This document shows, piece by piece, positions 8,259-61,982 of a stretch of 64,000 nt of DNA. A program made the translations under genes and the position numbers. The notes below the pieces were generated by a model that saw only the letters and a list, made by a program, of their open reading frames with translations, ran no database searches and was not told the DNA's origin. Source of the DNA: Escherichia coli (GTDB taxonomy: Bacteria; Pseudomonadota; Gammaproteobacteria; Enterobacterales; Enterobacteriaceae); NCBI RefSeq assembly GCF_030013205.1, contig NZ_CP122648.1; one strand, 5' to 3'. The stretch's first letter is position 1. Every line of letters starts with the position of its first letter.

Positions 8259-9501
<1,243 letters not shown>

Positions 9502-10945: not shown

Positions 10946-11008
10946 TTTGATACTCCCCCCTGACTCCTCCATACTGAAAGTGAACTGACAGCCAAATGGA
11001 GGAGTCAC

Positions 11009-11656: not shown

Positions 11657-11789
11657 TCCTGACCCGCCGCGGCAGCCTGTATTCGCGGGTTGCCGCCGTT
11701 TTCAGTTTTTTCTGCTGGCGCGTTTATCGCTGGTGACACATGCTGCGTTGTGTCAGGATATTGACGCAGATTTCATGTCGAGGACTACC

Positions 11790-43292: not shown

Positions 43293-44536
43293 GCGAGTTG
43301 AGTTATCTGGAAAAATTGCTGGATGGGGTTGTGGTTGAGTGGAAAACCCTTGAGGATATTTCTATAAAGATATCATCTGGAGGAACCCCTAAAACTGGCG
43401 TATCAGAATTTTATGATGGCGACATTCCTTGGTTGCGAACTCAAGAAGTAAACTTTTGTGATATATGGGATACCGAGGTAAAAATAACTGAGTCTGGAGT
43501 TAAAAACTCTAGTGCAAAATGGATACCAAAGAATTGTGTCATTGTTGCTATGTATGGGGCAACTGTGGGGAAAATCGGCATAAACAAAATTCCAATGACA
43601 ACAAATCAAGCGTGCGCAAATATTCAACTTAATGAAGAAGTTGCTCATTATAGATATGTATTTCACTTCTTGTGTAGCCAATACACATATATCAAATCCC
43701 TTGGAACAGGGTCCCAGACAAACATAAATGCGCAGATTGTCAAAAATATTAAGATCCCCATCCCCTGCCCAGAAAACCCGGAAAAATCCCTTGCCATCCA
43801 GTCTGAAATCGTTCGGATTCTGGACAAATTTACTGCACTTACCGCTGAGCTTACCGCTGAGCTTAACATGCGTAAAAAACAGTACAACTACTATCGCGAC
43901 CAGTTGTTGAGTTTTAAAGAGGGTGAGGTTGAGTGGAAAAGTCTGGAAGATATTGCTTTATTTAGACGGGGTTCATTTCCACAGCCATATGGAAATAGTG
44001 AATGGTATGATGGAGAAGGTTGCATGCCTTTTGTTCAGGTAGCTGATGTGGCTGATTCAGGATTTACATTACACACAAAAACCAAACAACAGATTTCTAA
44101 GATTGCACAAAGCAAGAGCGTTTTTGTTGAGGCTGGAACAATTGTTGTGACACTGCAAGGTACTATTGGTCGAGTAGCAATAACACAGTACGATTGTTAT
44201 GTGGATAGAACTCTTGCAATATTTACTAACTTTAAAGTAAAAATAAACAAAAAATACTTTGCTTATCAACTAAAAGCTAAATTCGATTCAGAGAAAGAAT
44301 TTGCAAGAGGAAGTACTTTGAAGACAATTACAAAAGAAGAGTTTTCTAAGTTCCAATTACCTCTTCCCTCAATAAACGAACAAAATCGTATAGTATCACT
44401 ATTGGATAAGTTCGATACACTGGCTCATTCAATAAAACAAGGTCTCCCGCGTGAAATCGAGTTGCGCCAGAAACAATACGAATACTACCGTGATTTACTG
44501 TTCAGTTTCCCGAAACCTGAAACTGCCAGTAATTAA
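43289..44536 (+). CDS. hsdS: Type I restriction-modification specificity subunit HsdS (two target-recognition domains)
   Basis: 415 aa; ATGA overlap with hsdM; conserved central and C-terminal repeats ([14 protein letters not shown] / [15 protein letters not shown]); TAEL-TAEL spacer. Confidence 0.88.
43841..43864 (+). repeat. Tandem 12-bp repeat ACCGCTGAGCTT x2 encoding TAEL-TAEL in the hsdS central spacer
   Basis: Read directly from sequence; same repeat class whose copy number sets spacer length in EcoR124I/EcoR124II. Confidence 0.85.
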
Positions 44537-44657
44537 TTGATCATTGCTACCGATCGGACCACCTTAACACCCGGTCAGTATATAGACTATTTTTTACGCG
44601 CCGGAAGTCACCATTACCCCCCTTCCGGCCCTTGCCAGACGGCACAAAGGATGCGCT

Positions 44658-47600
44658 ATGACTCATCAGACACACACCATTGCTGAATCCAATAACTTTA
44701 TCGTTCTTGATAAGTACATCAAAGCTGAGCCAACAGGCGACAGCTACCAGAGCGAATCGGACCTGGAACGTGAACTGATTCAGGACCTGCAAAATCAGGG
44801 TTATGAATTTATTTCCGTAAAATCACAGTCGGCAATGCTATCCAATGTTCGGGAACAGCTTCAGAGCCTCAATGGTGTGATGTTTAATGACAGCGAGTGG
44901 CGGCGCTTCACGGAGCAGTATCTGGACAACCCCAGCGATGGTATTCTGGATAAAACCCGTAAAATCCATATCGACTATATCTGCGACTTTATTTTTGACG
45001 ACGGGCGACTTGAGAACATCTATTTGATAGATAAAAAGAATCTCATGCGCAATAAGGTGCAGATTATCCAGCAGTTTGAACAGACGGGTTCTCATGCTAA
45101 CCGTTATGACGTCACGATCCTGGTTAATGGTTTACCGCTGGTGCAAATCGAACTAAAAAAACGCGGGGTGGCGATTCGTGAGGCTTTCAACCAGATACAT
45201 CGTTACAGTAAAGAGAGTTTTAACAGCGAAAATTCCCTGTTTAAGTATCTGCAACTGTTTGTCATTTCTAACGGCACCGATACCCGTTATTTTGCCAACA
45301 CGACAAAGCGCGATAAAAACAGTTTTGACTTCACCATGAATTGGGCGAAATCAGACAACACGCTGATTAAAGACCTCAAAGACTTTACCGCTACCTTTTT
45401 CCAGAAACATACTCTGCTGAATGTTCTGGTGAACTACAGCGTTTTTGACAGTAGTCAGACGCTACTGGTGATGCGACCGTACCAGATTGCCGCCACCGAG
45501 CGCATTCTGTGGAAAATTAAGAGTTCCTTTACAGCGAAGAACTGGTCAAAACCGGAAAGCGGTGGGTATATCTGGCACACTACCGGTTCTGGTAAAACCC
45601 TCACCAGCTTTAAAGCCGCGCGTCTGGCAACAGAGCTGGACTTTATTGATAAAGTCTTCTTTGTGGTCGACAGGAAAGACCTCGATTACCAGACCATGAA
45701 GGAATATCAGCGTTTTTCGCCAGACAGCGTCAACGGCTCGGAAAATACCGCAGGCCTTAAACGAAATCTGGATAAGGACGATAACAAAATTATCGTCACT
45801 ACTATTCAGAAACTCAATAACCTGATGAAAGCAGAAAGCGACCTGCCTGTATATAATCAGCAAGTGGTGTTTATATTTGATGAATGCCACCGCAGCCAGT
45901 TTGGAGAAGCGCAGAAAAACCTGAAGAAGAAATTCAAACGCTATTATCAGTTTGGTTTTACCGGCACCCCTATTTTCCCGGAAAACGCCTTAGGCTCAGA
46001 AACAACCGCCAGCGTATTTGGTCGTGAATTGCATTCGTATGTAATTACCGATGCGATTCGTGACGAAAAAGTGCTCAAATTCAAAGTGGACTACAACGAT
46101 GTGCGGCCACAGTTTAAGTCTTTAGAGACAGAAACTGACGAGAAAAAACTAAGTGCGGCTGAAAATCAGCAGGCGTTTCTTCATCCCATGCGTATTCAGG
46201 AAATCACGCAATATATTCTGAATAATTTCCGCCAGAAAACTCACCGTACCTTCCCTGGCTCAAAAGGTTTTAATGCTATGTTGGCAGTGAGCAGCGTGGA
46301 TGCCGCGAAAGCCTATTATGCGACGTTTAAACGGTTACAAGAAGAAGCCGCTAATAAATCGGCTACCTATAAACCGCTGCGTATTGCGACAATCTTCTCC
46401 TTTGCCGCCAATGAAGAACAAAATGCCATTGGTGAAATTTCCGATGAAACTTTTGATACCAGCGCAATGGACAGCAGTGCTAAAGAGTTTCTGGACGCTG
46501 CAATTCGTGAATATAACAGCCATTTTAAAACTAACTTTAGCACCGACAGTAACGGTTTTCAGAACTACTATCGTGATTTAGCCCAGCGGGTTAAAAATCA
46601 GGATATCGATCTGCTAATTGTCGTGGGGATGTTTTTAACCGGCTTCGATGCTCCAACATTGAACACGCTATTCGTCGATAAAAACTTGCGTTTTCACGGC
46701 CTGATGCAGGCATTTTCCCGCACCAACCGTATTTATGATGCAACTAAAACCTTCGGTAATATCGTCACTTTCCGGGATCTGGAACGCTCAACTATTGATG
46801 CCATAACGCTGTTTGGTGATAAAAACACCAAAAATGTGGTGTTAGAAAAGAGTTATGCTGAGTATATGGAAGGCTTTACTGATGCTGCTACTGGTGAAGC
46901 TAAACGCGGCTTCATGACAGTAGTTTCAGAACTGGAACAACGGTTCCCTGACCCTGCCAGTATTGAAAGTGAAAAAGAGAAGAAAGACTTCGTTAAACTG
47001 TTTGGCGAATACCTGCGTGCCGAGAACATCCTGCAAAACTATGATGAATTTGCCACGCTAAAAGCCCTGCAACAAATCGATCTTAGCGATCCTGTTGCGG
47101 TAGAAAAATTCAAAGCAGAACATTATGTGGATGATGAAAAGTTCGCTGAATTGCAAACAATTCGTCTCCCTGCTGATCGCAAGATTCAGGATTATCGTTC
47201 TGCCTATAACGATATTCGCGACTGGCAGCGCCGTGAGAAAGAAGCTGAGAAAAAAGAGAAATCAACCACTGACTGGGATGACGTAGTTTTTGAGGTCGAT
47301 TTGCTGAAGTCTCAGGAAATAAACCTGGATTATATCCTTGGACTGATTTTCGAACACAACAGACAAAATAAAGGCAAGGGCGAAATGATCGAAGAGGTCA
47401 AACGCTTAATTCGTTCAAGCCTGGGGAACCGTGCTAAAGAGGGCCTGGTGGTCGATTTTATTCAGCAAACGAACCTGGATGATTTACCGGACAAAGCCAG
47501 CATCATTGACGCATTCTTTACGTTTGCTCAACGCGAACAGCAACGTGAAGCAGAAGCCTTGATCAAAGAAGAAAATCTCAATGAAGAGGCGGCGAAACGC

Positions 47601-47774
47601 TATATTCGCACATCTTTAAAACGCGAATACGCCACCGAAAATGGCACGGAATTAAACGAGACACTGCCCAGACTCAGTCCTTTAAATCCGCAATATAAAA
47701 CGAAAAAACAGACTGTTTTTCAAAAAATTAGCGCATTTATTGAAAAATTTAAGGGGGTGGGTGGAAAGATTTAG
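44658..47774 (+). CDS. hsdR: Type I restriction enzyme endonuclease/translocase subunit HsdR
   Basis: 1,038 aa; Walker A TGSGKT and DEAD-box variant FDECHRSQ; good ribosome-binding site; follows hsdMS. Confidence 0.9.
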
Positions 47775-48970
<1,196 letters not shown>

Positions 48971-49163
48971 CTAAGATAATTGGTTTTTAGCGAGTGACGG
49001 GCTAGGTTGTGTCAGTCTGTCTCATGTCGATATTACGGGGATGATGCAAACCTGAATGCTGCGATATTGGCGTGTCAGGGGAGGCATCTTACGGTATCAT
49101 TTACCGCAATTTTTAAGATGCAATGCCCTGCATCGCAGGCTTTTCTTCAGACCAGGATGATTC

Positions 49164-50216
49164 ATGAACGACAAAATCAGTCAGGACACGATCAACAAAG
49201 CCCTGTGGGCCGCGTGTGATACGTTCCGTGGCACCATCAGTGCTGATACCTATAAAGACTTTATCCTTACCATGCTGTTCCTTAAGTACATTTCGGATGT
49301 CTGGCAGGATCATTACGATGAATATAAAAAACAGTATGGTGATGCACCAGAACTCATTGAAGCCATGATGGCGAATGAACGTTTCGTATTGCCGAAAAGC
49401 GCCAGTTTCTATGCGCTGTATGAACGTCGTCATGAACCGGGCAATGGTGAGCGCATCGACCAGGCTCTGCATGCGATTGAAGAAGCTAATGGCACCAAAC
49501 TGAAAGACGCCGGGAAAAGCGTGTTCCAGGATATTTCGTTTAACACCGATCGCCTAGGTGAAGAAAAACAGAAGAACACCATCCTGCGTCAGCTGCTGGA
49601 AGACTTTGCCGGTCAAGATCTTAACCTGAAGCCGAGCCGTGTCGGTACGCTGGACGTTATCGGTAATGCCTACGAATATCTGATCAAAAACTTTGCTGCC
49701 AGCGGTGGGCAGAAAGCCGGGGAATTCTATACCCCACCAGAAGTTTCGGACCTGATTGCAGAACTGCTCGATCCGCAACCGGGTGATACCATCTGCGATC
49801 CAGCCTGTGGTTCCGGTTCATTATTGATGAAGTGTGGGCGTAAAATTGTCTCCGGGCATGATAGTCGTAACTATGCATTGTTCGGTCAGGAAGCGATCGG
49901 TTCTGCGTGGTCGCTGGCGAAAATGAATATGTTCCTGCACGGGGAAGACAACCATAAAATCGAGTGGGGCGATACCATTCGTAACCCGAAGCTGCTCGAT
50001 AAAAATGGCGACCTGATGCTGTTTGATATCGTGACCGCTAACCCACCGTTCAGCCTCGATAAGTGGGGCCATGACGAGGCCGAGAACGATAAGTTTGGCC
50101 GTTTTCGTCGCGGTGTACCGCCGAAGACTAAAGGAGGTATGGGATGCCTGCGCCAATATGGAGCGCTATATCCAGTACGGCTTTACCCCGCAAGAGCGCC
50201 ACCGTCTGTTTGGTGA
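49164..50216 (+). pseudogene. hsdM: Second type I restriction-modification methyltransferase hsdM, 3'-truncated (homology ends near 50,130; 3' tail of ORF is out-of-context)
   Basis: HsdM N-domain, DPACGSGSLL and NPPFS motifs present, but ORF ends ...[13 protein letters not shown] then unrelated tail; no hsdS follows. Confidence 0.7.
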
Positions 50217-51471
50217 GAGCGACTGGGGTCAGTTTGTGCCCCGTGATTTTGCCCATCTGCTTGATCTGCTAGGATCCCCAAACACGGCCGACGCTGCCGA
50301 TAAAAGCCGTGCAGCTGCCGGTAGCCAAGGGCGCACCTTGTTGGCCATTTTGCAGGATGACAAGCTTGATGGTGAGCAGACGGTGGAGGAGGAGAGCGCA
50401 GGCTCCGAGCGCTTTAACAGCGTCATCAACTTCTCCAACTTCTTGCTCCATGTGCTGCGACTCGTGAGCCGCGACCCGGGTGATACGGAGGGGGTGCCGC
50501 TTGATGATAAACAACTGGTCGATCAGTTTGAGCTGCGAGTGATAAGGCAACCGGATCCAGTAGCGGCAGTTCAGCGTTTTATCTATGGCCTGTTAAAGAG
50601 CAAGTATCTGTTTGATCAGTTCATCATCAAGCGCGAGTTTGCCGATGGCAAGGATAGTTGGAGTTTGAAGCGGCTGCACAGGTATTCGGAAAAGAGCGTC
50701 AGTTACATCAATACCTTTGACAAGGATGAAAATGAGAATGGTTTCTCTGGTGTTAACCGGCGGGTCCTGATGTTGCTGTCGGCGTTTCATGTGTCGACCC
50801 CGACCCTGGTTTACAAACATTGGCTGAATGGTGCACTGAGATATCTGTTCGACAATTGTCACCCTGATCAACCGGTGGATGCCGGGGCTTATCTGTCCTA
50901 TCTGGAGAGTCAGGCTCGCCGCTTTGTCTTCCAGCGCTTTTTGGCGCCTGGTGAAGGGGCTTCCTATTACCAGATGCTCTACCTTGATAACGCCCTGTTG
51001 CCCGCCATCAATGTGGATGAGAGTTGGCACAAGGTGATTACATCCAAACTTCGCTTCGGTCATATCGAGAACAACTTTGTCTTCAACTTCCTCGACTATC
51101 TGCTGTGGGTACGAGATCGGAATAGCGACAAAGTTGCTGGCTCCTTTGAGTTCACTTTCCGCAGCTCGGTGGAGCACTTCTCACCCCAGCATCCGATGGA
51201 TGGCTATAAACCGGTTGAGCAGAGTGCACTCCATTCGTTTGGCAACCTTTGCCTTATCAGCCACAGCAAGAACTCGCGCTTGAGTAACTTCCAGCCGCAA
51301 CAGAAGCAGGAGCACTTTGAAGCAAGCCTTGCCAATAACCAGACTGATAGTCTTAAATTGCTTGCTATGATTCGGCTGATGAAAGATAAAGGTCGTTGGC
51401 TGGAAGATGAGATAGCTGTGCATCAACAAGATATGTTGCAGGTCTTACTATCCAATCAAATTCAGCAATAA
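50158..51471 (+). pseudogene. GmrSD-like type IV restriction enzyme, C-terminal DUF1524 (His-Me finger) portion; 5' DUF262 part missing
   Basis: C-terminal ...[15 protein letters not shown]...[16 protein letters not shown] resembles the DUF1524 motif; no DGQQR DUF262 motif; upstream in-frame sequence is hsdM DNA read in another frame. Could alternatively be expressed from ATG 50158. Confidence 0.5.
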
Positions 51472-51657
51472 CGGATTGAATCTGTTTATGAAATTTGGCT
51501 GCTATCAACTAATGGGCGTTAAGTTGATTGTATGATCTGATTGATAAAGAAGGGGAGACTAAAAATCTCCTCTTCTTTGCAGCAGTTTACTGCGGTCTTT
51601 TTGTGATGCATCAGCATAAAACGTTTTACTTGTGGACCCTAAGAAATGGAGAACATT

Positions 51658-54600
51658 ATGTCGACTGTAGATACCTCTATAGCAGAGGAACTCAATCAAG
51701 GAGGCTCAGATTTTATTCTGACTTCCCTCGAGGCTATGCGTAAGAAGTTATTGGACCTTACGTCTCGAAATCGACTTTTGAATTTCCCTATCACTCAAAA
51801 AGGGTCTTCACTACGTATTGTTGATGAATTACCAGAACAGCTTTATGAAACCCTTTGCTCGGAAATCCCGATGGAATTTGCTCCTGTGCCCGATCCAACT
51901 AGAGCGCAGCTGTTAGAGCATGGCTATCTCAAAGTTGGGCCAGATGGTAAAGATATACAGTTAAGAGCTCATCCTAGCGCTAAGGATTGGGCGCACGTCT
52001 TAGGAATCCGTACAGATTTTGATTTACCAGATAGCCATAAAACGGTTGTTTCTGATTCAGATAGAGAGTTGCTGGAAAAAGCCCATCAGTTTATCTTGCA
52101 ATATGCCCAAGGCCAGAATGGAAAATTAACAGGGATTCGTTCTGAATACGTTAATCAAGGTATAGCTTTGTCAGCGTTGAAGGAGGCGTGCTGCTTAGCA
52201 GGCTATGAAGGGCTTGAGGATTTTGAACGACAGGCAAAGGCTGGGAATGAGATTAGTATATCTTCTTCCAATCCCTCTCATGACGATAATCGGATACAGG
52301 CTCTGCTTTATCCAAATGAACTGGAAGCTTGTTTGCGCGCCATCTATGGTAAGGCTCAAACTGCTTTGGAGGAGAGTGGCGCCAACATCTTGTATTTGGC
52401 GTTAGGGTTCCTTGAGTGGTATGAAAGCGATTCCTCTGAAAAGGCACGTTATGCACCGTTATTTACAATTCCGGTGAGATGTGAACGAGGAAAATTAGAT
52501 CCGAAGGATGGTCTTTACAAGTTTCAACTTTATTACACGGGTGAAGATATTTTGCCCAATCTCTCTTTGAAGGAAAAACTTCAGGCTGACTTTGGCCTCG
52601 CTCTTCCTTTGTTCAATGAAGAGGAAACTCCAGAGTCTTATTTTGCTTCGGTGAAGAAGGTTGTAGAGCAGCACAAACCTAAATGGTCTGTGAAACGTTA
52701 TGGTGCACTTAGCTTGCTCAATTTTGGCAAGATGATGATGTATCTTGACCTCGATCCTGCCCGCTGGCCTTGTGACAAGCGCAATATATTGTCTCATGAA
52801 GTAATTCGTCGCTTTTTCACCAGTCAGAGCTGTGGTCAAGAGAATTCCGGCTTACCTGGTGGCTTCGGTCAGCATGAGTACTGCATCGATAGTTACCCTG
52901 ATATTCATGACAAGGTTCCACTAATCGATGATGCGGATAGCTCGCAGCACAGTGCGTTGATCGATGCTATCCGTGGTCAAAACTTAGTCATTGAGGGCCC
53001 TCCTGGTAGTGGCAAATCACAAACGATCACCAACTTGATTGCAGCAGCTCTGCTCAACGGTAAGAAAGTCCTGTTTGTGGCAGAGAAGATGGCTGCACTG
53101 GAGGTCGTCAAACGTCGCTTGGATCGTGCGGGGCTAGGTCAATTTTGCTTAGAGTTGCACAGTCATAAAACTCATAAGCGCAAGGTGCTGGATGATATTA
53201 ATGCTCGCTTGGTGAGTCAGGCGACCATGCCTACTATGGAAGAGATTGATGCTCAGATTTTGCGTTATGAAGATCTTAAGCAGCAGCTCAATGAATATGC
53301 CGCATTGATCAATAACCAATGGGCGCAAACAGGCAAAACGATCCATCAGATTTTGAGTGGTGCAACCCGTTATCGTCACAAATTAGATATTGATGCAACA
53401 GCACTTCATATCGAAAACCTTTCCGGGAAGCAGTTGGATAAAGTGACCCAATTACGGCTGCGTGACCAAATAGTAGAGTTTAGCCGCATCTACAAAGAGG
53501 TTCGTGAGCAGGTGGGGGCTAATGCAGAAATATATGAGCACCCTTGGAGCGGTGTGAATAACACACAAATTCAATTGTTTGACAGCGCTCGTATAGTCGA
53601 TTTGCTACAAACTTGGCAGACATCAATTATCGACTTTCAACATAGCTATCAAGAATATGTAGATAAGTGGGCGTTAGAAGGCGAAAGCCTTAATACGCTT
53701 CAATATATTGAGCAATTGGTAGAAGATCAGTCGAATCTTCCAGTGTTGTGTGGTTCAGAGCATTTCCCAGCACTTAGTGAGCTAGATTCACCCGATGCCA
53801 TTGCACGGGTGCGTCACTATTTAGATAGGTTCGAGTTGCTACAAGGTCATTATGTGGCCTTGAGCCAGGTTATCGAGCCTCAAAAGCTACGACTTTTAGA
53901 ACAAGGACAATCGTGTGACTTTCCTCGTGAAGAGCTGGAAAAATATGGTGCAGCAGAGGATTTCACTTTACGTGATTTGGTCAGGTGGCTTGAATCCATC
54001 CAATCAATTCATGATGAGTTATCATCTATTTATGCGCAATTAAACGATTTCAAAAATGCTTTGCCAGATGGTATTGCTTCGTATATCGATGATTCGCAAG
54101 CTGGATTGCTATTCTGCTCTGAGTTGTTGTCGATTCTGGGTGCTTTACCGACTGAGCTTATTAGAGTTCGAGATCCTCTTTTTGATGATGATGATATCGA
54201 TGCAGTATTGCGCGACTTAATGTGTCAAATCGAAACATTGCGTCCTTTAAGAGATGGTCTATCTACTTTGTATCAATTGGACCAGTTGCCTTCCCAAGAG
54301 ATGCTCGCGCATGCCGTTGCTGTTATCCAGCAAGGGGGATTATTTGCATGGTTTAAGAGTGATTGGCGTAGTGCCAAGGCACTGCTCATGGCGCAATCTC
54401 GTAAGCCCGACACTAAGTTTGCTGAGTTAAAACGCTGCTCAGCTGATTTGCTCAAGTATTCGGAGCTGTTACAACGGTTTGAACAAAGTGACTTTGGTAA
54501 TCAACTTGGTAATGCATTCCGAGGGTTGGACACCGACTGTGAACAACTCATGTTATTGCGTGATTGGTACAAGAAGGTCCGAGCTTGTTACGGGATAGGT

Positions 54601-57393
54601 TTTGGAAAGCGAGTTGCGATAGGCTCTGGATTATTTAACCTAGATGGTGAGATTATCAAAGGTGTGCATTTAATCGAGAAATCGCAGATTAGCTCAAGAT
54701 TAATGACTTTGGTTAAACGGGTCGAGCACGAGGCTAAGTTATTACCGCGTATTTCTAGCTTGTTGGAAGAACATGCATCTTGGTTAGGTGAGCAAGGTGT
54801 ATTGATGCAATCTTACCGACAGGTGCGGAATACTCTCATTGCCTTGCAGGGATGGTTTATCAATCCAGATATATCATTAGAGCAGATGACTCATTCCTCC
54901 GAGATTTTGCAAAACATAAACGATCTTCAGATATCCCTTGAAAATGACTCGTTACAGTTAGGGGCGTTTTTACAATTAACCCCATTGGCTTGCGGTGCGT
55001 ATAAAAATAATCAACTGACGTTAGACACTATTAACGACACGCTGAATTTTGCCGAGCAACTGGTTGATAAGATAAATTGCGTATCCTTGGCTACCCAGAT
55101 CAGACATTTGGCTAGTGGTAGTGATTACGATTTACTATGTCGTGATGGTGGGGAAATAGTTTCGAAATGGAATGAACAGATTAAAAATGCTGAGTTATAT
55201 GCGCTAGAAACAAAGTTAGAGCGGAGTCAGTGGCTCAAGTCGACTGATGGTTCTCTTAATACATTAATCGAGCGCAACGAAAGAGCAATACAGCAACCCC
55301 GTTGGTTGAACGGGTGGGTTAACTTTATTCGTTGTTACGAGCAGATGGATGAAAACGGATTGCAGCGAATCTGGAGTGCTGTACTTGCGGGCTCGCTCCC
55401 GATTGAAAAAGTTGAATTGGGTTTAGCATTAGCAATTCATGACCAGCTGGCGCGGGAGGTTATTCACATCCACCCTGAATTGATGAGAGTTTCCGGCTCA
55501 CAGCGCAATGCTTTGCAGAAGTCATTTAAAGATTACGACAAAAAACTGATTGAATTACAACGTCAGCGGATTGCAGCAAAAATTGCTTGCCGAAATATAC
55601 CAGAAGGGAATTCTGGTGGTAAGAAAAGCGAATATACAGAACTAGCTTTGATCAAAAATGAGTTGGGTAAAAAAACCAGACATATTCCAATTAGACAATT
55701 GGTTAACCGTGCATGTAATGCGCTGGTTGCAATTAAACCTTGTTTCATGATGGGGCCAATGTCAGCAGCTCATTACCTAGAACCTGGACGAATGGAATTT
55801 GATCTGGTGGTGATGGACGAAGCGTCTCAGGTGAAGCCAGAGGATGCATTGGGTGTCATCGCGAGGGGCAAGCAACTAGTGGTCGTTGGTGACCCGAAAC
55901 AGCTACCACCAACCAGTTTCTTTGATCGAAGTGCCGACGGAGAAGATGACGATGATGCCGCGGCTTTAAGTGATACTGACAGCATTTTGGATGCTGCTTT
56001 GCCACTGTTTCCTATGAGACGTTTGCGTTGGCACTATCGTTCACGACATGAAAAGTTGATTGCATACTCTAACCGCCATTTTTATAACAGTGATTTGGTG
56101 ATATTCCCTTCCCCAAATGCTGAGTCTCCAGAGTATGGGATTAAATTTACCTATGTGTCAAAAGGTCGGTTCTCCAATCAACACAATATTGAAGAAGCCC
56201 AAGCAGTTGCTGAGGCCGTACTTCATCATGCGCAACACCGGCCGGGTGAGTCACTCGGGGTAGTGGCCATGAGTTCCAAGCAACGCGATCAAATTGAGCG
56301 CGCTATCGATGAATTGCGCCGAAATCGCCCTGAATTTAACGATGCAATCGATGGCTTATATGCCATGGAAGAGCCACTTTTTGTGAAAAACCTTGAGAAC
56401 GTTCAAGGGGATGAGCGTGATGTAATCTTTATTTCCTTTACCTATGGACCTTCTGAGCATGGTGGAAAGGTTTATCAACGCTTTGGACCTATCAATTCCG
56501 ATGTTGGCTGGCGTCGCTTGAATGTGCTTTTCACTCGATCAAAAAAACGGATGCATGTGTTTAGTTCAATGCGTTCTGAAGATGTATTGACGAGTGAAAC
56601 CAGTAAACTTGGTGTTATTTCGTTGAAAGGTTTTTTACAGTTTGCCGAAAGTGGCAAACTAGATTCCCTCACAACGCATACCGGCAGGGCTCCAGATAGT
56701 GACTTTGAGGTTGCTGTAATGGAAGCACTCAATCACGCTGGGTTTGAGTGTGAACCTCAGGTAGGGGTTGCAGGATTCTTTATTGATCTAGCTGTGAAAG
56801 ATCCAGGTTGTCCTGGCCGTTACTTAATGGGCATAGAGTGTGATGGTGCGGCTTATCACTCAGCTAAATCTGCTCGTGATCGTGACCGTTTGCGTCAAGA
56901 GGTTCTGGAGCGTTTGGGTTGGAGAATTAGCCGCATTTGGTCCACTGATTGGTTCAGTAATCCTGATGAGGTTCTATCTCCGATTATCCGTAAACTCCAT
57001 GAGCTTAAAACATTGGCTCCAGACGTTGTTGTACCTTCCTATGAATATGTAGAAACGATTGAGTCAAGCGCTGAAGTGGCGTCTGACTCAATTGATTCTC
57101 TTATGCCCAATTTGGGGCTTAAGGAGCAACTTAAGTATTTTGCCACACATGTCATTGAGGTTGAGCTTCCTAATGTTGATGCTGATCGTCGTTTGTTGCG
57201 GCCCGCAATGCTTGAGGCTTTGCTGGAACATCAGCCTTTATCACGTTCCGAGTTTGTTGAACGAATACCTCATTATCTGCGGCAAGCAACAGATGTATAC
57301 GAAGCGCAACGCTTTCTTGACCGAGTCTTGGCATTAATTGATGGCGCAGAGGCTGAAGCGAATGATGCAGCGTTTGAGTCTGAATTGGCATAA
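51658..57393 (+). CDS. Giant DUF4011-type SF1 (Upf1-like) helicase with C-terminal Vsr/DUF559-like endonuclease domain (Hhe-like architecture); candidate defence protein
   Basis: DUF4011-like signatures (LLDLTSRNRLLNF, ILYLALGFLEW), Walker A GPPGSGKS (52996-53019), motif II VVMDEASQ (55807-55830), motifs V/VI QGDERDVIFIS...RRLNVLFTRSKKRM, then GFFIDLAVKD...IECDGAAYHS...RDRDRLRQEVLERLGWRISRIW Vsr-like fold; ATG 51658 has GGAG 6 nt upstream (alternative ATG 51646). Confidence 0.85.
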   Translation: MSTVDTSIAEELNQGGSDFILTSLEAMRKKLLDLTSRNRLLNFPITQKGSSLRIVDELPEQLYETLCSEIPMEFAPVPDPTRAQLLEHGYLKVGPDGKDIQLRAHPSAKDWAHVLGIRTDFDLPDSHKTVVSDSDRELLEKAHQFILQYAQGQNGKLTGIRSEYVNQGIALSALKEACCLAGYEGLEDFERQAKAGNEISISSSNPSHDDNRIQALLYPNELEACLRAIYGKAQTALEESGANILYLALGFLEWYESDSSEKARYAPLFTIPVRCERGKLDPKDGLYKFQLYYTGEDILPNLSLKEKLQADFGLALPLFNEEETPESYFASVKKVVEQHKPKWSVKRYGALSLLNFGKMMMYLDLDPARWPCDKRNILSHEVIRRFFTSQSCGQENSGLPGGFGQHEYCIDSYPDIHDKVPLIDDADSSQHSALIDAIRGQNLVIEGPPGSGKSQTITNLIAAALLNGKKVLFVAEKMAALEVVKRRLDRAGLGQFCLELHSHKTHKRKVLDDINARLVSQATMPTMEEIDAQILRYEDLKQQLNEYAALINNQWAQTGKTIHQILSGATRYRHKLDIDATALHIENLSGKQLDKVTQLRLRDQIVEFSRIYKEVREQVGANAEIYEHPWSGVNNTQIQLFDSARIVDLLQTWQTSIIDFQHSYQEYVDKWALEGESLNTLQYIEQLVEDQSNLPVLCGSEHFPALSELDSPDAIARVRHYLDRFELLQGHYVALSQVIEPQKLRLLEQGQSCDFPREELEKYGAAEDFTLRDLVRWLESIQSIHDELSSIYAQLNDFKNALPDGIASYIDDSQAGLLFCSELLSILGALPTELIRVRDPLFDDDDIDAVLRDLMCQIETLRPLRDGLSTLYQLDQLPSQEMLAHAVAVIQQGGLFAWFKSDWRSAKALLMAQSRKPDTKFAELKRCSADLLKYSELLQRFEQSDFGNQLGNAFRGLDTDCEQLMLLRDWYKKVRACYGIGFGKRVAIGSGLFNLDGEIIKGVHLIEKSQISSRLMTLVKRVEHEAKLLPRISSLLEEHASWLGEQGVLMQSYRQVRNTLIALQGWFINPDISLEQMTHSSEILQNINDLQISLENDSLQLGAFLQLTPLACGAYKNNQLTLDTINDTLNFAEQLVDKINCVSLATQIRHLASGSDYDLLCRDGGEIVSKWNEQIKNAELYALETKLERSQWLKSTDGSLNTLIERNERAIQQPRWLNGWVNFIRCYEQMDENGLQRIWSAVLAGSLPIEKVELGLALAIHDQLAREVIHIHPELMRVSGSQRNALQKSFKDYDKKLIELQRQRIAAKIACRNIPEGNSGGKKSEYTELALIKNELGKKTRHIPIRQLVNRACNALVAIKPCFMMGPMSAAHYLEPGRMEFDLVVMDEASQVKPEDALGVIARGKQLVVVGDPKQLPPTSFFDRSADGEDDDDAAALSDTDSILDAALPLFPMRRLRWHYRSRHEKLIAYSNRHFYNSDLVIFPSPNAESPEYGIKFTYVSKGRFSNQHNIEEAQAVAEAVLHHAQHRPGESLGVVAMSSKQRDQIERAIDELRRNRPEFNDAIDGLYAMEEPLFVKNLENVQGDERDVIFISFTYGPSEHGGKVYQRFGPINSDVGWRRLNVLFTRSKKRMHVFSSMRSEDVLTSETSKLGVISLKGFLQFAESGKLDSLTTHTGRAPDSDFEVAVMEALNHAGFECEPQVGVAGFFIDLAVKDPGCPGRYLMGIECDGAAYHSAKSARDRDRLRQEVLERLGWRISRIWSTDWFSNPDEVLSPIIRKLHELKTLAPDVVVPSYEYVETIESSAEVASDSIDSLMPNLGLKEQLKYFATHVIEVELPNVDADRRLLRPAMLEALLEHQPLSRSEFVERIPHYLRQATDVYEAQRFLDRVLALIDGAEAEANDAAFESELA

Positions 57394-57415
57394 TTAGTTA
57401 AAGGTAATAAGAACA

Positions 57416-57586
57416 GTGACAACTGTCGGACAACGTGAACGCGCAACTCAACAGCGCGTAATCAGGTTTTTTATTGAGGAATTGGGCTATCGTTATCTAG
57501 GCGATTGGCACAAGCGTCCTAACAACCGTAATGTTGAGCCTGATTTGCTCAGTCATTGGTTGATTGACCGTGGTGTTGTGGACTGA
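57416..57586 (+). pseudogene. Small ORF with HsdR-N-like motif, 22 nt downstream of the giant gene; terminated at the IS3-family element boundary
   Basis: GTG start; VTTVGQRERATQQRVIRFFIEELGYRYLGDWHK... ; stop TGA coincides with first bases of the IS; possible continuation at 62297-62484. Confidence 0.35.
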
Positions 57587-57613
57587 CCCCACGCCCGTAG
57601 ACAAATTCTGTCC

Positions 57614-58061
57614 TCACGACGAGGCCTGTTCGAAGGCCTCCGGACTGACGCCGCCGAGGTGACTGTGGCGCCGGGCCCGGTTGTAGAACACTTCAATGTA
57701 ATCGAAGATATCCGCCCGGGCTAGATCCCGGGTTTTGTATATTCTCTTCCTGATGCGCTCTTTTTTCAGTGAACTGAAGAACGATTCGGCCACCGCATTA
57801 TCCCAGCAGTTGCCACGCCGGCTCATGCTCGGGACCAGGTTATTAGCCCGGCAGAAGTGCTGCCAGTCGTCACTGCCGTACTGGCTTCCCTGGTCTGAGT
57901 GCACGATGACCTCGCCGTCGGGTTTACGTCGCCAGACCGCCATCATCAGTGCATCCAGCGCCAGTTCGCGTGAGAGAGTGGGCTTCATCGACCAGCCCAC
58001 CACGTTACGGGCGAAGAGATCGATAACCACCGCCAGATACAGCCAGCCCTGCCAGGTGCGG
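57614..58061 (-). pseudogene. IS3-family transposase OrfB, C-terminal exon (downstream of intron)
   Basis: ...[26 protein letters not shown]...DDE integrase core...NRARRHSHLGGVSPEAFE. Confidence 0.7.
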
Positions 58062-60332
58062 AGTAGAGTAAGAGGCAGGGCGTAGTCGGACTATTTCCCT
58101 GCCTCTCCTCCCCGAACCGGACGTGCACCTTTCAGCGCATCCGGCTCTCCATTTAAATGCTGGCGAACGCCATTGCCACTTCTGTAAAGCGCGATGTATA
58201 CGTGTTTCTGGTCTCCGTCCTCAGATAGGGATTACCTTCGGGTAGCCGCCAGCGGAACAGCTTCTTGCCTTGCCCCACCAACCGGTACAGTATTTCGCCG
58301 CTGAGCTTGCCGTGATTGGTTTTACCAAATAAAACCCACGTTTTGCTCTGACCCGGTTTCGGTGATTTACACCACCACCTCATCAGGGAAGCGATACCTG
58401 TACGGTATTTGTGGGCCAGCCAGTGAGCCAGCTTCCAGAACACGACACGGTCGATATAACTGAAGACTTTGGCCTTAAAATCAACGAACTGATAGAACAT
58501 GGCCCAGCCTTTCAGTTTTCGGTTGAGTTGTTCAGCCATATCGACTTTGCTTTCACTGTAGTTGCCTGATAACAGTGCTGTCAGCGATGCGGCGAAGTTT
58601 CTGGCTTTCTCCTGCGGGATCGTTGAGACCACTCGCATCTCGCCATAACGACTGCGTTTGCGAATGATCCTGTGCCCCAGAAAGATAAAGCCGTCATTAA
58701 CATGGGTGATTTTAGTCTTATCCATGTTCAGCCTGAGTTTCAGACTGCCTTTGAGCACACCCCGACACTCCTCCCTGATGGCTTCCGCCTGTGCTTTGGT
58801 GCCTTTGACGATGAGGACAAAATCATCGGCATAGCGGCAGTACGCCACCGCGGGTTTCCACTGCCAGTTTTCTCTGACCGCCGTACTTCGGCCCCGTTGG
58901 ATACTGTTATTCCAGTACCACCGATCTTTTCTGGCTTTCCCGCTCAGGTAGCGCTCATGCAGGTATTGATCGAACTCATTCAGCATGATGTTCGATAATA
59001 GCGGCGATATAACACCGCCCTGTGGCACACCTTCACTGGCCGCCCGAAAGAGACCGACATCGATATGTCCCGCCTTGATGGTTTTCCACAGCAGAGTCAT
59101 GAAACGTGCGTCACTGATCCTGCGGCGTACAGCCTTCATCAGCAGTCGATGATGTACGGTGTCGAAGTAACTGGACAGGTCGCCTTCAATCACCCAGCGT
59201 CCCCGGGTTTCACCACAGTCTGTGAGCTGTAATTTCACCGTGCGGATCGCGTGGTGGACACTGCGCTCAGGCCGGAAGCCATATGAGAGCGTATGAAAAT
59301 CACTCTCCCATATCGGCTCCATCGCCATCAGCATGGCCCGCTGAACAATACGATCCCGCAACGCGGGGATACCCAGTGGTCGCAGTTTGCCGTTGCTTTT
59401 AGGGATGTAAACCCGTCTGGCGGGCAAGGGCTGGTAGTGGCCTGAGAGTAATTCATCCCTGAGGATTTGCAGCTCAACAGCCAGTCTGGCCTGTAGCATT
59501 GTTTTGTTCACGCCATCAACGCCGGGGGTATGGGCCCCCTTTGATGAAAGCGTGATCCGCGCCGCTTCAGCCAGCCATTCTGGTTGTGTTATCAGACGCA
59601 GCAGCCGTTGAATCCGTAGGGACGGATCGGTGGCTGCCCATGTGGCAAGCTTGCGTTGCATTTCGCTGATTATCAAAGGTCTTCACCTCGTTAGGTCAGT
59701 TAATTCACGTCGTAAACACATTCAAACTGCTTCCCTTCGCCATGTAATGGGCTTTCCCCATCGCGGACTACTACGGAAGCTCCGCCAGCCAGCGCGTCAT
59801 CGGAGCCATGCCCCCTTAACATCCGTCGCTGACCTTCCCCGGTTTACCTGCCTGGACTCAGGCATACTGAGGAGGCTGCCCGTCGCACTCTTTATCCTTG
59901 CTTGCCGCAAGTTGGCAGAAGTCAGCAACGCAAGCGTGATAGACGCTGCTGCCCCGGTGTTTCGCATACATGTCAAAACACCTTCGACCGGCAGTGCTTA
60001 CGTATCACTGCCAGTTCCTCCTGCACGGCCTGTCAGATCACGTAGGCCGTGGTGACGTTTTCAACCCACAGAGGCGGATTAACGGGTTCATGTTCTTCAG
60101 CCTTTCAGTACTTAACCTTGAGGATCATCTCGGCTTAGTGATCTCGCCTCAATCCCCGTTGTCAGCGGGTTACATCACCTTGCGGGCATGCCGCAGGTCA
60201 CTGCCGCTCAGGTTCTCCACCGTCACACCCGGTGGGATTGTTGGGTTTCTCATCGTGAGTTACCGGTTCAATATTCCAGACAGATTCGCGGTTCATTTAA
60301 GCATCCATGCCCGCCCTGAACTCCGGGCACAC
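58062..60332 (-). mobile_element. Bacterial group II intron (about 2.27 kb) inserted in IS3-family orfB
   Basis: 5' end GUGUG at the exon junction (minus strand), 3' end ...CUAC; domain V-like hairpin GAGCCGGATGCGCTGAAAGGTGCACGTCCGGTTC near 58100-58135; reverse-transcriptase ORF in domain IV. Confidence 0.75.
58153..59676 (-). CDS. Group II intron-encoded reverse transcriptase/maturase
   Basis: 507 aa; reverse-transcriptase motifs including YADD (YCRYADDFVLIV); maturase X-like C-terminus. Confidence 0.85.
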   Translation of the reverse strand: MIISEMQRKLATWAATDPSLRIQRLLRLITQPEWLAEAARITLSSKGAHTPGVDGVNKTMLQARLAVELQILRDELLSGHYQPLPARRVYIPKSNGKLRPLGIPALRDRIVQRAMLMAMEPIWESDFHTLSYGFRPERSVHHAIRTVKLQLTDCGETRGRWVIEGDLSSYFDTVHHRLLMKAVRRRISDARFMTLLWKTIKAGHIDVGLFRAASEGVPQGGVISPLLSNIMLNEFDQYLHERYLSGKARKDRWYWNNSIQRGRSTAVRENWQWKPAVAYCRYADDFVLIVKGTKAQAEAIREECRGVLKGSLKLRLNMDKTKITHVNDGFIFLGHRIIRKRSRYGEMRVVSTIPQEKARNFAASLTALLSGNYSESKVDMAEQLNRKLKGWAMFYQFVDFKAKVFSYIDRVVFWKLAHWLAHKYRTGIASLMRWWCKSPKPGQSKTWVLFGKTNHGKLSGEILYRLVGQGKKLFRWRLPEGNPYLRTETRNTYTSRFTEVAMAFASI

Positions 60333-60693
60333 TATAGGTCACATCACCGCACCACACCTGATTTGGCTCGGTCACGGCGAACTGCCGTTCAAGGTAGTTA
60401 GGGATAGCAACGTGCTCATGACCGCCACGCTTATACCGGTGAGTCGGCTGCTGGCAACTGACCAGTCCCAGCTCTTTCATGAGTCTGCCAGCAAGCCAGC
60501 GCCCCATCTGGTAGCCTCTCCGGGTTGCCATTGTGGCGATGCTTCTTGCTCCGGCAGAGCCGTGGCTGATGCCATGCAGTTCAAGTACCTGGCTGCGTAA
60601 TACAGCCCGTCTGCCGTCTGGCTTTTCAGGACGGTTTTTCCAGTATTTGTAGCTGCTGCGATGGACCCCGAACACATGGCAGAGAGTGGCCAC
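60333..60693 (-). pseudogene. IS3-family transposase OrfB, N-terminal exon (upstream of intron)
   Basis: ...[14 protein letters not shown] then intron; IS911-like. Confidence 0.7.
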
Positions 60694-60761
60694 AGGATAA
60701 CGCGCCCTGAGTTTCCCGATTATCGAGAACTGTTCAGGGAGTCTGACATCAAGAGCGCGGT

Positions 60762-61982
60762 TGTAGATTCAATTGGTCAACGCAACAGTTATGTGAAAAC
60801 ATGGGGTTGCGGAGTTTTTTTGAATGAGACGAACATTTACAGCAGAGGAAAAAGCCTCTGTTTTTGAACTATGGAAGAACGGAACAGGCTTCAGTGAAAT
60901 AGCGAATATCCTGGGTTCAAAACCCGGAACGATCTTCACTATGTTAAGGGATACTGGCGGCATAAAACCCCATGAGCGTAAGCGGGCTGTAGCTCACCTG
61001 ACACTGTCTGAGCGCGAGGAGATACGAGCTGGTTTGTCAGCCAAAATGAGCATTCGTGCGATAGCTACTGCGCTGAATCGCAGTCCTTCGACGATCTCAC
61101 GTGAAGTTCAGCGTAATCGGGGCAGACGCTATTACAAAGCTGTTGATGCTAATAACCGAGCCAACAGAATGGCGAAAAGGCCAAAACCGTGCTTACTGGA
61201 TCAAAATTTGCCATTGCGAAAGCTTGTTCTGGAAAAGCTGGAGATGAAATGGTCTCCAGAGCAAATATCAGGATGGTTAAGGCGAACAAAACCACGTCAA
61301 AAAACGCTGCGAATATCACCTGAGACAATTTATAAAACGCTGTACTTTCGTAGCCGTGAAGCGCTACACCACCTGAATATACAGCATCTGCGACGGTCGC
61401 ATAGCCTTCGCCATGGCAGGCGTCATACCCGCAAAGGCGAAAGAGGTACGATTAACATAGTGAACGGAACACCAATTCACGAACGCTCCCGAAATATCGA
61501 TAACAGACGCTCTCTGGGGCATTGGGAGGGCGATTTAGTCTCAGGTACAAAAAACTCTCATATAGCCACACTTGTAGACCGAAAATCACGTTATACGATC
61601 ATCCTTAGACTCAGGGGCAAAGATTCTGTCTCAGTAAATCAGGCTCTTACCGACAAATTCCTGAGTTTACCGTCAGAACTCAGAAAATCACTGACATGGG
61701 ACAGAGGAATGGAACTGGCCAGACATCTAGAATTTACTGTCAGCACCGGCGTTAAAGTTTACTTCTGCGATCCTCAGAGTCCTTGGCAGCGGGGAACAAA
61801 TGAGAACACAAATGGGCTAATTCGGCAGTACTTTCCTAAAAAGACATGTCTTGCCCAATATACTCAACATGAACTAGATCTGGTTGCTGCTCAGCTAAAC
61901 AACAGACCGAGAAAGACACTGAAGTTCAAAACACCGAAAGAGATAATTGAAAGGGGTGTTGCATTGACAGATTGAATCTACA
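60762..61982 (+). mobile_element. IS30 (1,221 bp) inserted into orfA of the IS3-family element
   Basis: Terminal inverted repeats TGTAGATTCAATTGGTCAACGCAACAG and ...ATTGAATCTACA; exact IS30 length. Confidence 0.85.
60824..61975 (+). CDS. insI: IS30 transposase
   Basis: 383 aa MRRTFTAEEKASVFELWKNGTGFSEIANILG... with DDE motif. Confidence 0.9.
   Translation: MRRTFTAEEKASVFELWKNGTGFSEIANILGSKPGTIFTMLRDTGGIKPHERKRAVAHLTLSEREEIRAGLSAKMSIRAIATALNRSPSTISREVQRNRGRRYYKAVDANNRANRMAKRPKPCLLDQNLPLRKLVLEKLEMKWSPEQISGWLRRTKPRQKTLRISPETIYKTLYFRSREALHHLNIQHLRRSHSLRHGRRHTRKGERGTINIVNGTPIHERSRNIDNRRSLGHWEGDLVSGTKNSHIATLVDRKSRYTIILRLRGKDSVSVNQALTDKFLSLPSELRKSLTWDRGMELARHLEFTVSTGVKVYFCDPQSPWQRGTNENTNGLIRQYFPKKTCLAQYTQHELDLVAAQLNNRPRKTLKFKTPKEIIERGVALTD

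Follow-up and report, generated by a model that had tools for sequence, protein, structure and literature searches.

What remains of a restriction locus once most of its genes have been lost, and did the pieces that now lie side by side ever belong together? The question is raised by positions 48971-57586 of the window that we studied, a 64,000-nt stretch of DNA from a pig-associated Escherichia coli. A sequence-only reading had described there, downstream of an IS5 element, an incomplete hsdM, part of a DUF1524 nuclease gene, an intact giant helicase-nuclease gene and a 56-codon open reading frame (ORF), and had taken the whole for a single type I system that lost its restriction genes while keeping the cargo nested within it. 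As an observation this was borne out almost to the base, each element being found where it had been placed. As an interpretation it is only partly right: the pieces are fragments and genes have been lost, but hsdM' and hsdR' stem from two different type I systems. We conclude, with a probability of about 0.85, that the locus is part of an E. coli defence island that was built up in layers and has decayed, leaving hhe as the sole gene predicted to work.

The left border of the locus is formed by an IS5 element (47775-48970, minus strand; transposase ORF 47922-48902), called ISKpn26 in RefSeq, with the terminal repeats GGAAGGTGCGAATAAG and CTTGTTCGCACCTTCC. It starts directly past the stop codon of an intact hsdR, part of a complete type I system (41736-47774) that lies just upstream of the locus and is separate from the remnants. 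The 4-mers flanking the element are unlike (TTAG and CTAA), and so it is not a simple insertion with target duplication. Directly past its end at 48970, homology to the hsdM region of pipolins begins exactly at 48971. As judged by DNA identity to pipolin loci, which from this point onward is 98.7% for one (L009) and 94.6% for another (L010), the segment 48971-49163 (plus strand) is the native upstream region of a pipolin-type hsdM.

Of the 507 codons of a type I methyltransferase gene, the hsdM pseudogene itself (49164-50135, plus strand) has the first 324, and the residues that they encode (1-324) are 99.7% identical to those of the 507-aa HsdM in the type I system of pipolins. In the ORF at 49164-50216 the HsdM_N domain is complete (Pfam positions 1-135 of 135) and N6_Mtase is partial (4-160 of 311); the match to TIGR00497 covers positions 4-324 of 515, and the PADLOC MTase_I profile matches as well. 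The catalytic motifs that had been described as intact, the SAM motif DPACGSGS and NPPF, are both present. Native sequence stops at PPKTKG (codon 324, base 50135), in keeping with the break that had been placed near 50,130, and the remainder of the ORF (50136-50216, plus strand) is 26 codons of tgvB' DNA read in the wrong frame and then a stop, a tail whose translation departs from the native continuation KTKGDYAFISHM found in strain Ecol_244 (locus L001). RefSeq labels the gene "incomplete; missing C-terminus." With 324 of 507 codons and an incomplete N6_Mtase domain, it falls short of a complete type I subunit. Neither the ORFs nor the RefSeq annotation of 48971-57586 contain an hsdS, and the 95-codon hsdS stub of Ecol_244 has been deleted too. 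Because half of the catalytic domain is gone and there is no HsdS, we infer that hsdM' is unable to methylate.

What truncated hsdM is a deletion, whose junction (50135-50137) has 1 nt (G) of microhomology and lacks 3,421 bp relative to Ecol_244. The less-deleted locus of that strain reads hsdM (frameshifted)-hsdS'-IS fragment-DUF262 gene-DUF262/DUF1524 gene-hhe-IS3, and the BLAST alignment breaks where window position 50136 corresponds to 9234 and 12655 of the Ecol_244 locus. By this comparison the deletion removed the 3' part of hsdM, the hsdS stub, an IS911 fragment, a tgvA-like gene and codons 1-236 of a tgvB-like gene of the GmrSD family, joining hsdM' at 50135/50136 to codon 237 of the latter. 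Among 5,426 complete E. coli genomes, 15 have the same junction; these 15 come without exception from swine and belong to several separate accession series. A misassembly at about 50,136, or true small genes in place of the short ORFs, can be given hardly any credence, and nothing was found in favour of either: an identical junction in 15 independently assembled complete genomes means that the deletion is real and no assembly artefact, and against native small genes stand the truncated Pfam domains and the existence in relatives of a full-length version of each fragment (hsdM', the DUF1524 gene and the 56-codon ORF alike).

The tgvB-like pseudogene (50137-51471, plus strand) retains codons 237-680, that is, the linker and the DUF1524/GmrSD_C His-Me nuclease domain. 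Its full-length relative is a protein of 680 aa with both GmrSD_N and GmrSD_C (DUF262 and DUF1524), but here the DUF262 NTPase/sensor domain is lost and Pfam detects GmrSD_C only (PF07510, positions 24-137 of 138, E = 2.3e-11). The nuclease motif starting SVEH, which marks the DUF1524 His-Me finger, is present; of the DUF262 signature (QR, DGQQR, FxxxN), the DGQQR motif was not found in tgvB' and the domain as a whole is missing. The sequence-only description of a C-terminal DUF1524 fragment following hsdM with no hsdS between them was thus accurate. RefSeq labels it "HNH endonuclease family protein, missing N-terminus," and an ATG at 50071, in another frame of hsdM', opens a 466-codon chimeric ORF (50071-51471) that runs into it. 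The tgvA-like partner gene (10504-11955 in the Ecol_244 locus) lies inside the 3,421-bp deletion. NCBIfam holds no model for TgvA-like or TgvB-like proteins, and PADLOC matches them to HEC-06, Orf5 and SspE through the DUF262 region only. In Vibrio cholerae, where the type I system of VPI-2 embeds TgvAB, both proteins and the DUF262 motifs are needed for activity (PMC11411939). Since the DUF262 domain and the TgvA partner, both required in that system, are gone, tgvB' is in all likelihood unable to restrict.

The next gene, hhe (51646-57393, plus strand), is uninterrupted, with 1,911-1,915 codons depending on the start (RefSeq uses 51658, giving 1,911 aa). Its product matches the PADLOC Hhe profile over positions 1-1911 of 1911 (4300 bits) and the NCBIfam equivalog NF042953 over positions 1-1797 of 1797 (2738 bits; cut-off 2000), so that the giant gene is intact, as had been thought. 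Pfam finds DUF4011, an SF1 helicase core (AAA_11/AAA_12) and a C-terminal MTES_1575/DUF559 Vsr-like nuclease, and the ATPase motifs are intact (Walker A GPPGSGKS at residue 447, DEASQ at residue 1387). The protein is 99.6-99.8% identical, without gaps, to the Hhe of Ecol_244, of the pipolin S30 and of a Klebsiella plasmid, and RefSeq calls the identical protein Hhe. Judged by these matches, 51646-57393 is full-length Hhe, a known single-gene anti-phage system. On its own this helicase-nuclease should still give protection, probably sensing the activity of phage DNA metabolism and with the C-terminal Vsr-like nuclease as its likely effector. Hhe (HheA) was reportedly first described by Gao et al. 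2020 in Science, in agreement with its listing among studied systems. Phage triggers and counters have been mapped for cloned hhe (PMC11482910; bioRxiv 10.1101/2024.04.14.589459), and in a review Hhe figures among the experimentally studied defence systems, grouped with those of one 2020 screen (PMC13223576); the PADLOC papers PMC8565338 and PMC9252829 do not mention the name. A scan of 48900-57700 for promoters and terminators returned sites no more numerous than in shuffled sequence.

Beginning 22 bp past the hhe stop, an operon-like spacing, are the first 54 codons of a type I hsdR with a GTG start (57416-57578, plus strand). They match positions 1-54 of 1034 of the PADLOC profile REase_I PDLC03044 (E = 1.4e-17) and are 56% identical to the N-terminus of the 1035-aa HsdR of Pseudomonas juntendi (E = 4e-21); with 54 of 1034 profile positions left, a complete HsdR of nuclease and SF2 motor is not encoded. 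The stub is cut at 57578/57579 by the inverted repeat of an IS3-family element, and the IS end supplies the final two codons of the 56-codon ORF (57416-57586) together with its stop, which confirms that this ORF is an HsdR N-terminal piece cut by an IS. Taken with the 3,421-bp deletion, the cut also upholds the view that restriction genes were lost through deletion and IS activity while hhe was kept intact. The element (57579-60759, minus strand; end repeat TGGACTGACCCCAC), whose inverted-repeat pair was identified in S30 and in locus L067, has been invaded by a group II intron (ltrA 58153-59676; domain V/VI 58063-58149; Rfam RF00029, 64.9 bits) and is also cut by an IS30 (60824-61975). S30 was considered as an empty site of this right-hand IS3 and rejected: it keeps the far end of the IS, the interior having been lost via the 8-bp microhomology CGTGGTGT.

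The same adjacency of hhe and hsdR' occurs in Klebsiella plasmids, Edwardsiella tarda and Aeromonas diversa, and the length of the stub differs. The stub of E. tarda is 98% identical in DNA to that of the window and continues as native HsdR (DNVLIPQVLRQLEQAASLG). Downstream of hhe, A. diversa has about 262 hsdR codons (with a stop and a frameshift) and E. tarda about 73; E. coli and Klebsiella share a length of 54, and A. australiensis is left with about 8. Right-hand homology ends at 57439 in A. australiensis and at 57397 in E. anguillarum. To judge from these endpoints, hsdR formerly stood directly after hhe and was truncated independently in each lineage. The series is indirect evidence that Hhe was formerly inside a type I operon, or directly before its hsdR, together with a TgvAB-like pair.

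The unit that these genes form is mobile. An IS-bounded cassette, tgvA-tgvB-hhe-hsdR', is found in pipolins, in about 200 Klebsiella plasmids, in Edwardsiella and in Aeromonas, with an hsdR cut point that differs from lineage to lineage; 239 plasmid records carry it, 201 of them from Klebsiella. In one such plasmid (L005) the homology runs from 50136 to 57765 of the window, spanning the same hsdR'::IS3 junction. On the left, each copy seen has an IS911 end 14 bp ahead of tgvA. A composite transposon was considered and rejected: the left IS911 and the right-hand element are different IS3-family members, with transposases 42% identical. Exchange of hhe, HEC-06 and type I restriction-modification cargo between pipolins and plasmids near transposases has been described (PMC11551731).

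Could one ancestral type I operon nevertheless have run from hsdM' to hsdR', with the tgvB-like gene and hhe nested inside? The order hsdM'-hsdS'-...-cargo-hsdR' in the window and in Ecol_244 resembles a nested operon, and nested type I loci do exist (plasmid L008; PMC11411939). The pipolin loci already contradict this reading, which we hold to be highly improbable. Intact relatives of hsdM' always have their own hsdS, YecA-like gene, 1094-aa hsdR and M48/YgjP gene, in that order, and that HsdR has no similarity to the stub (E = 1.4), so that the hsdM/hsdS and hsdR flanks are not those of a single nested system of the VPI-2 type. Comparison with such loci, as the sequence-only reading had proposed, gave an arrangement unlike the single-system layout. 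Pipolins have both, the complete system upstream, then IS1 and IS911 debris, then the cassette, and all 10 of 10 TgvA-like contexts read hsdM-hsdS-YecA-like-hsdR(1094 aa)-YgjP-[IS debris]-tgvA-tgvB-hhe. On about 200 Klebsiella plasmids, and in Edwardsiella as well, the cassette with the same hsdR'::IS3 junction has no such hsdM beside it. Furthermore, HsdRs that share the N-terminus of the stub pair with long HsdMs (755-800 aa) that are just 34-38% identical to hsdM'. As hsdM' and the HsdR family of the stub belong to separate type I systems, the locus is a scar in which two such systems were put together through IS events.

If the stub belonged to a second system, was the cargo nested in it? 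The start of hsdR 22 bp past hhe supports the part of the earlier proposal that placed the cargo ahead of hsdR, although the hsdM' and hsdR' of the window do not come from one system. All four members seen of the HsdR family of the stub (L007, L008, L020 and L077) have the gene order hsdM-hsdS-(cargo)-hsdR; SprT/YgjP comes next in those loci that reach far enough. One precedent, E. coli plasmid L008, reads hsdM(long)-hsdS-TgvA(52%)-TgvB(46%)-hsdR', with tgvB and hsdR overlapping by their stop and start codons (ATGA). A different arrangement, in which tgvAB and hhe stood upstream of a type I system starting with hsdR (hsdR-hsdM-hsdS, EcoKI-like) and the stub marks a mere neighbour, seems to us unlikely, though a good deal less so than a single system. 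In its favour, an IS911 occupies the left of the cassette, so that hsdS before tgvA is not directly evidenced in this lineage (the adjacency is seen only in L008, among 46-52% homologues), and the Hhe of Mangrovitalea (L020; 53% identical) is encoded ahead of hsdM, outside the type I operon, so that hhe has no fixed place among type I genes. Most of the distant Hhe homologues have no type I gene detected within 10 kb. The order hsdM-hsdS-tgvA-tgvB-hhe-hsdR was not found in 56 Hhe loci of species-representative genomes searched by tblastn with HsdM, HsdS, HsdR and TgvAB; in metagenomes, the pattern of a stub read on beyond the IS junction (CATTGGTTGATTGACCGTGGTGTTGV) had 0 matches; and the 54-aa stub, compared with 5.8 billion proteins, retrieved just fragments of 39-90 aa and no intact operon. 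Against mere adjacency stand the constant gene order of the HsdR family, the placing of the L008 homologues between hsdS and hsdR, and the operon-like spacing of 22 bp. No intact ancestral operon having been recovered, we infer the nested ancestor from the homologous loci and the V. cholerae VPI-2 precedent: the cassette was probably nested in a separate, unsampled type I operon. A further-reaching reading, to which we give a very low probability, adds function to a three-layer ancestor hsdM-hsdS-tgvA-tgvB-hhe-hsdR, one type I system around both a type IV system and Hhe: that hhe repeatedly kept the 5' end of hsdR, in E. coli and Klebsiella as in Edwardsiella and Aeromonas, would then be due to something functional at the hhe/hsdR boundary (a terminator or regulatory element on the 3' side, say, or a short peptide from the HsdR N-terminus) and not to hitch-hiking.

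Returning to a layered origin from two type I systems, we propose the following history. In the oldest layer, a type I operon with a long HsdM and an HsdR starting M-x-x-VGQ-x-E would have enclosed two cargo systems between its hsdS and hsdR genes, a TgvAB-like type IV system of two genes (GmrSD family) and hhe. The three later layers can be traced in the loci compared. IS911 on the left and the other IS3-family element on the right took away hsdM and hsdS, and cut hsdR down to its first 54 codons, leaving the IS-bounded tgvA-tgvB-hhe-hsdR' that circulates in pipolins, Klebsiella IncF plasmids and other islands. E. coli pipolins have, upstream of this cassette, a complete second type I system (hsdM-hsdS-yecA-like-hsdR-M48). 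Of that system only hsdM and a 95-codon hsdS stub were left in the present island, where IS5 linked the whole to the third, intact type I system at 41736-47774. Lastly, in one swine ETEC/O139:H1 lineage, the illegitimate 3,421-bp deletion with its 1 nt of microhomology fused codon 324 of hsdM' to codon 237 of tgvB and destroyed the type IV system.

The decay around hhe is ordinary defence-island decay, and public genomes already annotate it as such; beyond careful annotation the significance is slight. The locus is a worked example of a defence island eroding around one retained single-gene system, and it shows that remnants of unlike systems can align so as to mimic one operon, which counsels caution in calling genes nested from gene order alone. 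For the swine ETEC lineage, Hhe should be the sole defence function to be expected of the locus, with no restriction-modification and no type IV restriction.

Set against known systems, the locus has recognisable 5' parts of the hsdM and hsdR of a type I restriction-modification system, but hsdM is incomplete, hsdS is absent, 54 hsdR codons are left and the remnants come from different systems. The TgvAB system of V. cholerae VPI-2, a two-protein type IV system of the GmrSD family (PMC11411939), shares with the undeleted relatives its architecture of a DUF262-only protein followed by one with DUF262 and DUF1524, and a homologous pair lies between hsdS and hsdR in plasmid L008. The lineage here adds hhe between tgvB and hsdR, and the window is without tgvA and the DUF262 half of tgvB, so that its TgvAB-like system is dead. 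With the cargo of E. coli pipolins at tRNA-Leu/yecA (type I restriction-modification, HEC-06-like, hhe; PMC11551731) the locus shares its near-identical hsdM' (99.7%) and a cassette 99.7-99.8% identical to those of S30 and TC24. The window itself is no pipolin: the material lies in another island, with a GTPase gene and another, intact type I system as neighbours; it has been joined there via IS5 and is more deleted. As for known Hhe, the architecture is the same (DUF4011, SF1 helicase and MTES_1575/DUF559) and the gene itself is no different; the context alone differs, the customary upstream tgvAB-like pair having been destroyed.

All four elements that the sequence-only reading had recognized (a truncated hsdM, a DUF1524 gene fragment, a giant gene, and a 56-codon ORF) proved to be real, but its derivation of hsdM' and hsdR' from one ancestral type I system did not hold, as the HsdR of the pipolin system from which hsdM' comes is unlike the hsdR' stub. 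The hsdM' ORF (49164-50216) is native to codon 324 (base 50135); against the hsdM equivalog (515 positions) it aligns from 4 to 324, with a complete HsdM_N domain and only positions 4-160 of the 311 of N6_Mtase (Pfam). Over the 324 native residues it shares 99.7% identity with the 507-amino-acid HsdM of a type I system of E. coli pipolins; pipolins with this system sit at tRNA-Leu/yecA, and DNA homology to their hsdM region begins exactly at 48971, adjoining the end of IS5. The intact pipolin order is hsdM-hsdS-YecA-like-hsdR (1094 amino acids)-M48/YgjP-like. In all 10 of the neighbourhoods collected around the TgvA-like gene (TgvA and TgvB forming a GmrSD-family type IV pair), this complete system lies upstream, followed by IS1 and IS911 debris, a DUF262 gene, a DUF262+DUF1524 gene, and Hhe.

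The 56-codon ORF, in turn, aligns with the first 54 of the 1034 positions in a PADLOC profile for type I restriction enzymes (E = 1.4e-17) and is 56% identical to residues 1-54 of a 1035-amino-acid HsdR of Pseudomonas juntendi, encoded in the operon hsdM (799 amino acids)-hsdS-X-hsdR-SprT. Its distant matches, at 45-57% identity, are the N-termini of annotated full-length HsdR proteins from Pseudomonas, Rhizobium, Rhodococcus, and Acetobacter. Because the long HsdM proteins partnered with HsdR of this family are only 34-38% identical to hsdM', and because the 56-codon ORF shows no similarity to the pipolin 1094-amino-acid HsdR (E = 1.4), we conclude that hsdM' and hsdR' are left over from two separate type I systems.

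Alignment to Ecol_244 (L001), a less-deleted E. coli relative, breaks where the native hsdM' sequence ends: window 44439-50136 matches L001 3537-9234 and window 50136-60360 matches L001 12655-22879, with 3,421 bp absent from the window and one G common at the joint. The absent DNA holds the remainder of hsdM, a 95-codon hsdS stub, the 3' part of IS911, the gene for a 483-amino-acid DUF262 protein, and codons 1-236 of that for a 680-amino-acid DUF262+DUF1524 protein. What is left of the last, tgvB' (50137-51471), matches GmrSD_C/DUF1524 only (Pfam), lacking the DGQQR motif and retaining the His-Me finger. Among 5,426 complete E. coli genomes, exactly 15 have the same junction, and every one of them is from pigs; this rules out an assembly artefact at ~50,136 and places the deletion in a single lineage. 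A product of the deletion is a 466-codon chimeric ORF (50071-51471), consisting of 22 codons of hsdM' in an alternative frame, the TgvB linker, and the DUF1524 His-Me nuclease domain, which would be freed from the regulatory DUF262 domain. In Ecol_244, hsdM has a premature stop at codon 242 (L001 8985-8987) and a frameshift further on (~9385-9440); the stop is absent from the window, and hsdM decay was therefore independent in the two lineages.

The hsdR' stub (57416-57578) is followed from 57579 by the IS3-family terminal repeat TGGACTGACCCCAC, and thus native hsdR sequence ends after 54 codons, the final two and the stop being supplied by the IS. The truncating IS3-family element holds a group II intron (58063-60300, - strand) with ltrA at 58153-59676 and an Rfam Intron_gpII domain V/VI at 58063-58149 (64.9 bits), and is itself interrupted by IS30 (60824-61975). 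We rejected E. coli pipolin S30 as an empty site for this insertion, as the far terminus of the element still persists there (~65 bp); nearly the whole IS3 interior has gone (L003 16270-16345) via the 8-bp microhomology CGTGGTGT, which pairs hsdR' codons 52-54 with the start of the IS orfA.

The block comprising the IS911 fragment, tgvA-like, tgvB-like, hhe, and hsdR to codon 54 is 99.7-99.8% identical in pipolins S30 and TC24 and in a Klebsiella IncF plasmid, whose homology spans the same hsdR'::IS3 junction and reaches window 57765; by tblastn the stub is found in 239 plasmid records (201 from Klebsiella). Only 22 bp separate the hhe stop from the hsdR' start. In Edwardsiella tarda an IS fragment-hhe-hsdR' array adjoins metL (98.2% DNA identity over window 51370-57576), and its stub has ~19 extra native codons (DNVLIPQVLRQLEQAASLG) alignable with other HsdRs. 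The same hsdR follows hhe in Aeromonas diversa for ~262 codons, interrupted by a frameshift and a stop; A. australiensis retains ~8 codons and Edwardsiella anguillarum none. These lengths are independent truncation points on one ancestral hhe-hsdR adjacency. tgvB, too, is reduced in E. tarda and E. anguillarum, to its final 55-100 bp; hhe is thus the surviving unit between two eroding neighbours. The E. tarda unit (L078 3508-10237: hhe, 73 codons of hsdR, and the final 100 bp of tgvB), with an IS5-like fragment as the sole element beside it, is the smallest transferred unit seen.

Was the cargo once nested in a type I operon, as the sequence-only reading held? We infer that the hhe-bearing cargo probably was, although in an operon of the stub's family. 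All four members of that family seen have the order hsdM-hsdS-(cargo)-hsdR, and an E. coli IncHI1B/IncY plasmid (L008) carries long hsdM-hsdS-TgvA homologue (52%)-TgvB homologue (46%)-hsdR', without hhe, its hsdR' being of the stub's family and overlapping tgvB by ATGA. The type I system of V. cholerae VPI-2 likewise encloses TgvAB (PMC11411939). Against nesting counts our failure to recover an intact nested operon containing hhe in searches of Hhe loci, metagenomes, and proteins, as does Mangrovitalea sediminis (L020 10001-25472), in which Hhe, at 53% identity, is the immediate upstream neighbour of such an operon and not nested in it; the operon reads hsdM (57% to P. juntendi)-hsdS-DUF262 protein(s)-hsdR with a stub-type N-terminus. 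There, type I system, DUF262 genes, and Hhe are again together in a different order. On a heavily frameshifted ENA metagenome contig (ERZ1714338:contig_662), hsdM is followed by ~6 kb with other genes, among them one with HATPase_c_4, then by an hsdR that matches the stub at 76% identity over its N-terminus, and a YgjP-like gene; Mrr and a DUF2787 gene (DUF2787 being a pipolin core gene) lie next to these. The contig may represent a further cargo-bearing locus of the family.

Window 39903-64000 is 99.99% identical to E. coli strain K_EC180, and ~15 complete genomes, those of swine ETEC/O139:H1 strains, match the 8.7-kb query at 100% identity. Directly upstream of the locus is a complete type I system (hsdM, hsdS, and hsdR of 1038 amino acids; 41736-47774). 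Its hsdM and hsdR are 95-99% identical to their Ecol_244 counterparts; in hsdS only the central 182 bp (43757-43938), the first ~50 bases, and the last ~100 bases align; the strains hence differ by a swap of target-recognition domains. The intervening IS5/ISKpn26 is flanked by TTAG (47771-47774), within which the stop codon of the intact hsdR falls, and CTAA (48971-48974). Because these 4-mers form no direct target duplication, IS5 probably marks the point at which recombination joined the intact hsdR, at its 3' end, to the pipolin-derived hsdM region.

With half of the catalytic domain missing from hsdM' and HsdS absent, DUF262 and the partner protein lost from tgvB', and hsdR' reduced to 54 codons, all three fragments are likely to be inactive, in light of what is known of type I enzymes and of TgvAB mutagenesis: protection against T-even phages needs both Tgv proteins and both DUF262 motifs (PMC11411939). 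The giant gene encodes full-length Hhe (PADLOC 1-1911/1911; NCBIfam 2738 bits, cut-off 2000) with DUF4011, AAA_11, AAA_12, and MTES_1575/DUF559 domains (Pfam), and differs from copies in three other contexts by 4-8 substitutions and zero gaps. Intact Hhe is thus the only plausible candidate for an active defence gene of the locus. Cloned hhe is a single helicase-nuclease gene for which Bas63 g40 and a number of T7 class II genes of DNA metabolism behave as triggers; co-expression with a trigger causes growth toxicity, and phage genes that counter Hhe have been described (PMC11482910; bioRxiv 10.1101/2024.04.14.589459). Its SF1 motor may sense or engage DNA structures arising from phage DNA metabolism and, once engaged, would license the C-terminal Vsr-like nuclease.

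Much of this was on record. RefSeq already has the pseudogene calls, annotating in the same genomes an IS5-like ISKpn26, a type I M subunit ("incomplete, missing C-terminus"), an HNH endonuclease family protein ("missing N-terminus"), a "DUF4011 domain-containing anti-phage protein Hhe," an IS3 family transposase fragment, and a group II intron ltrA. Hhe is a known system, type IV cargo embedded in type I operons has been published, and hhe, HEC-06-like genes, and type I RM have been described as exchanged among pipolins, plasmids, and other islands near transposases (PMC11551731). What we add is a correction to the single-system reading, together with the hsdR stub series.
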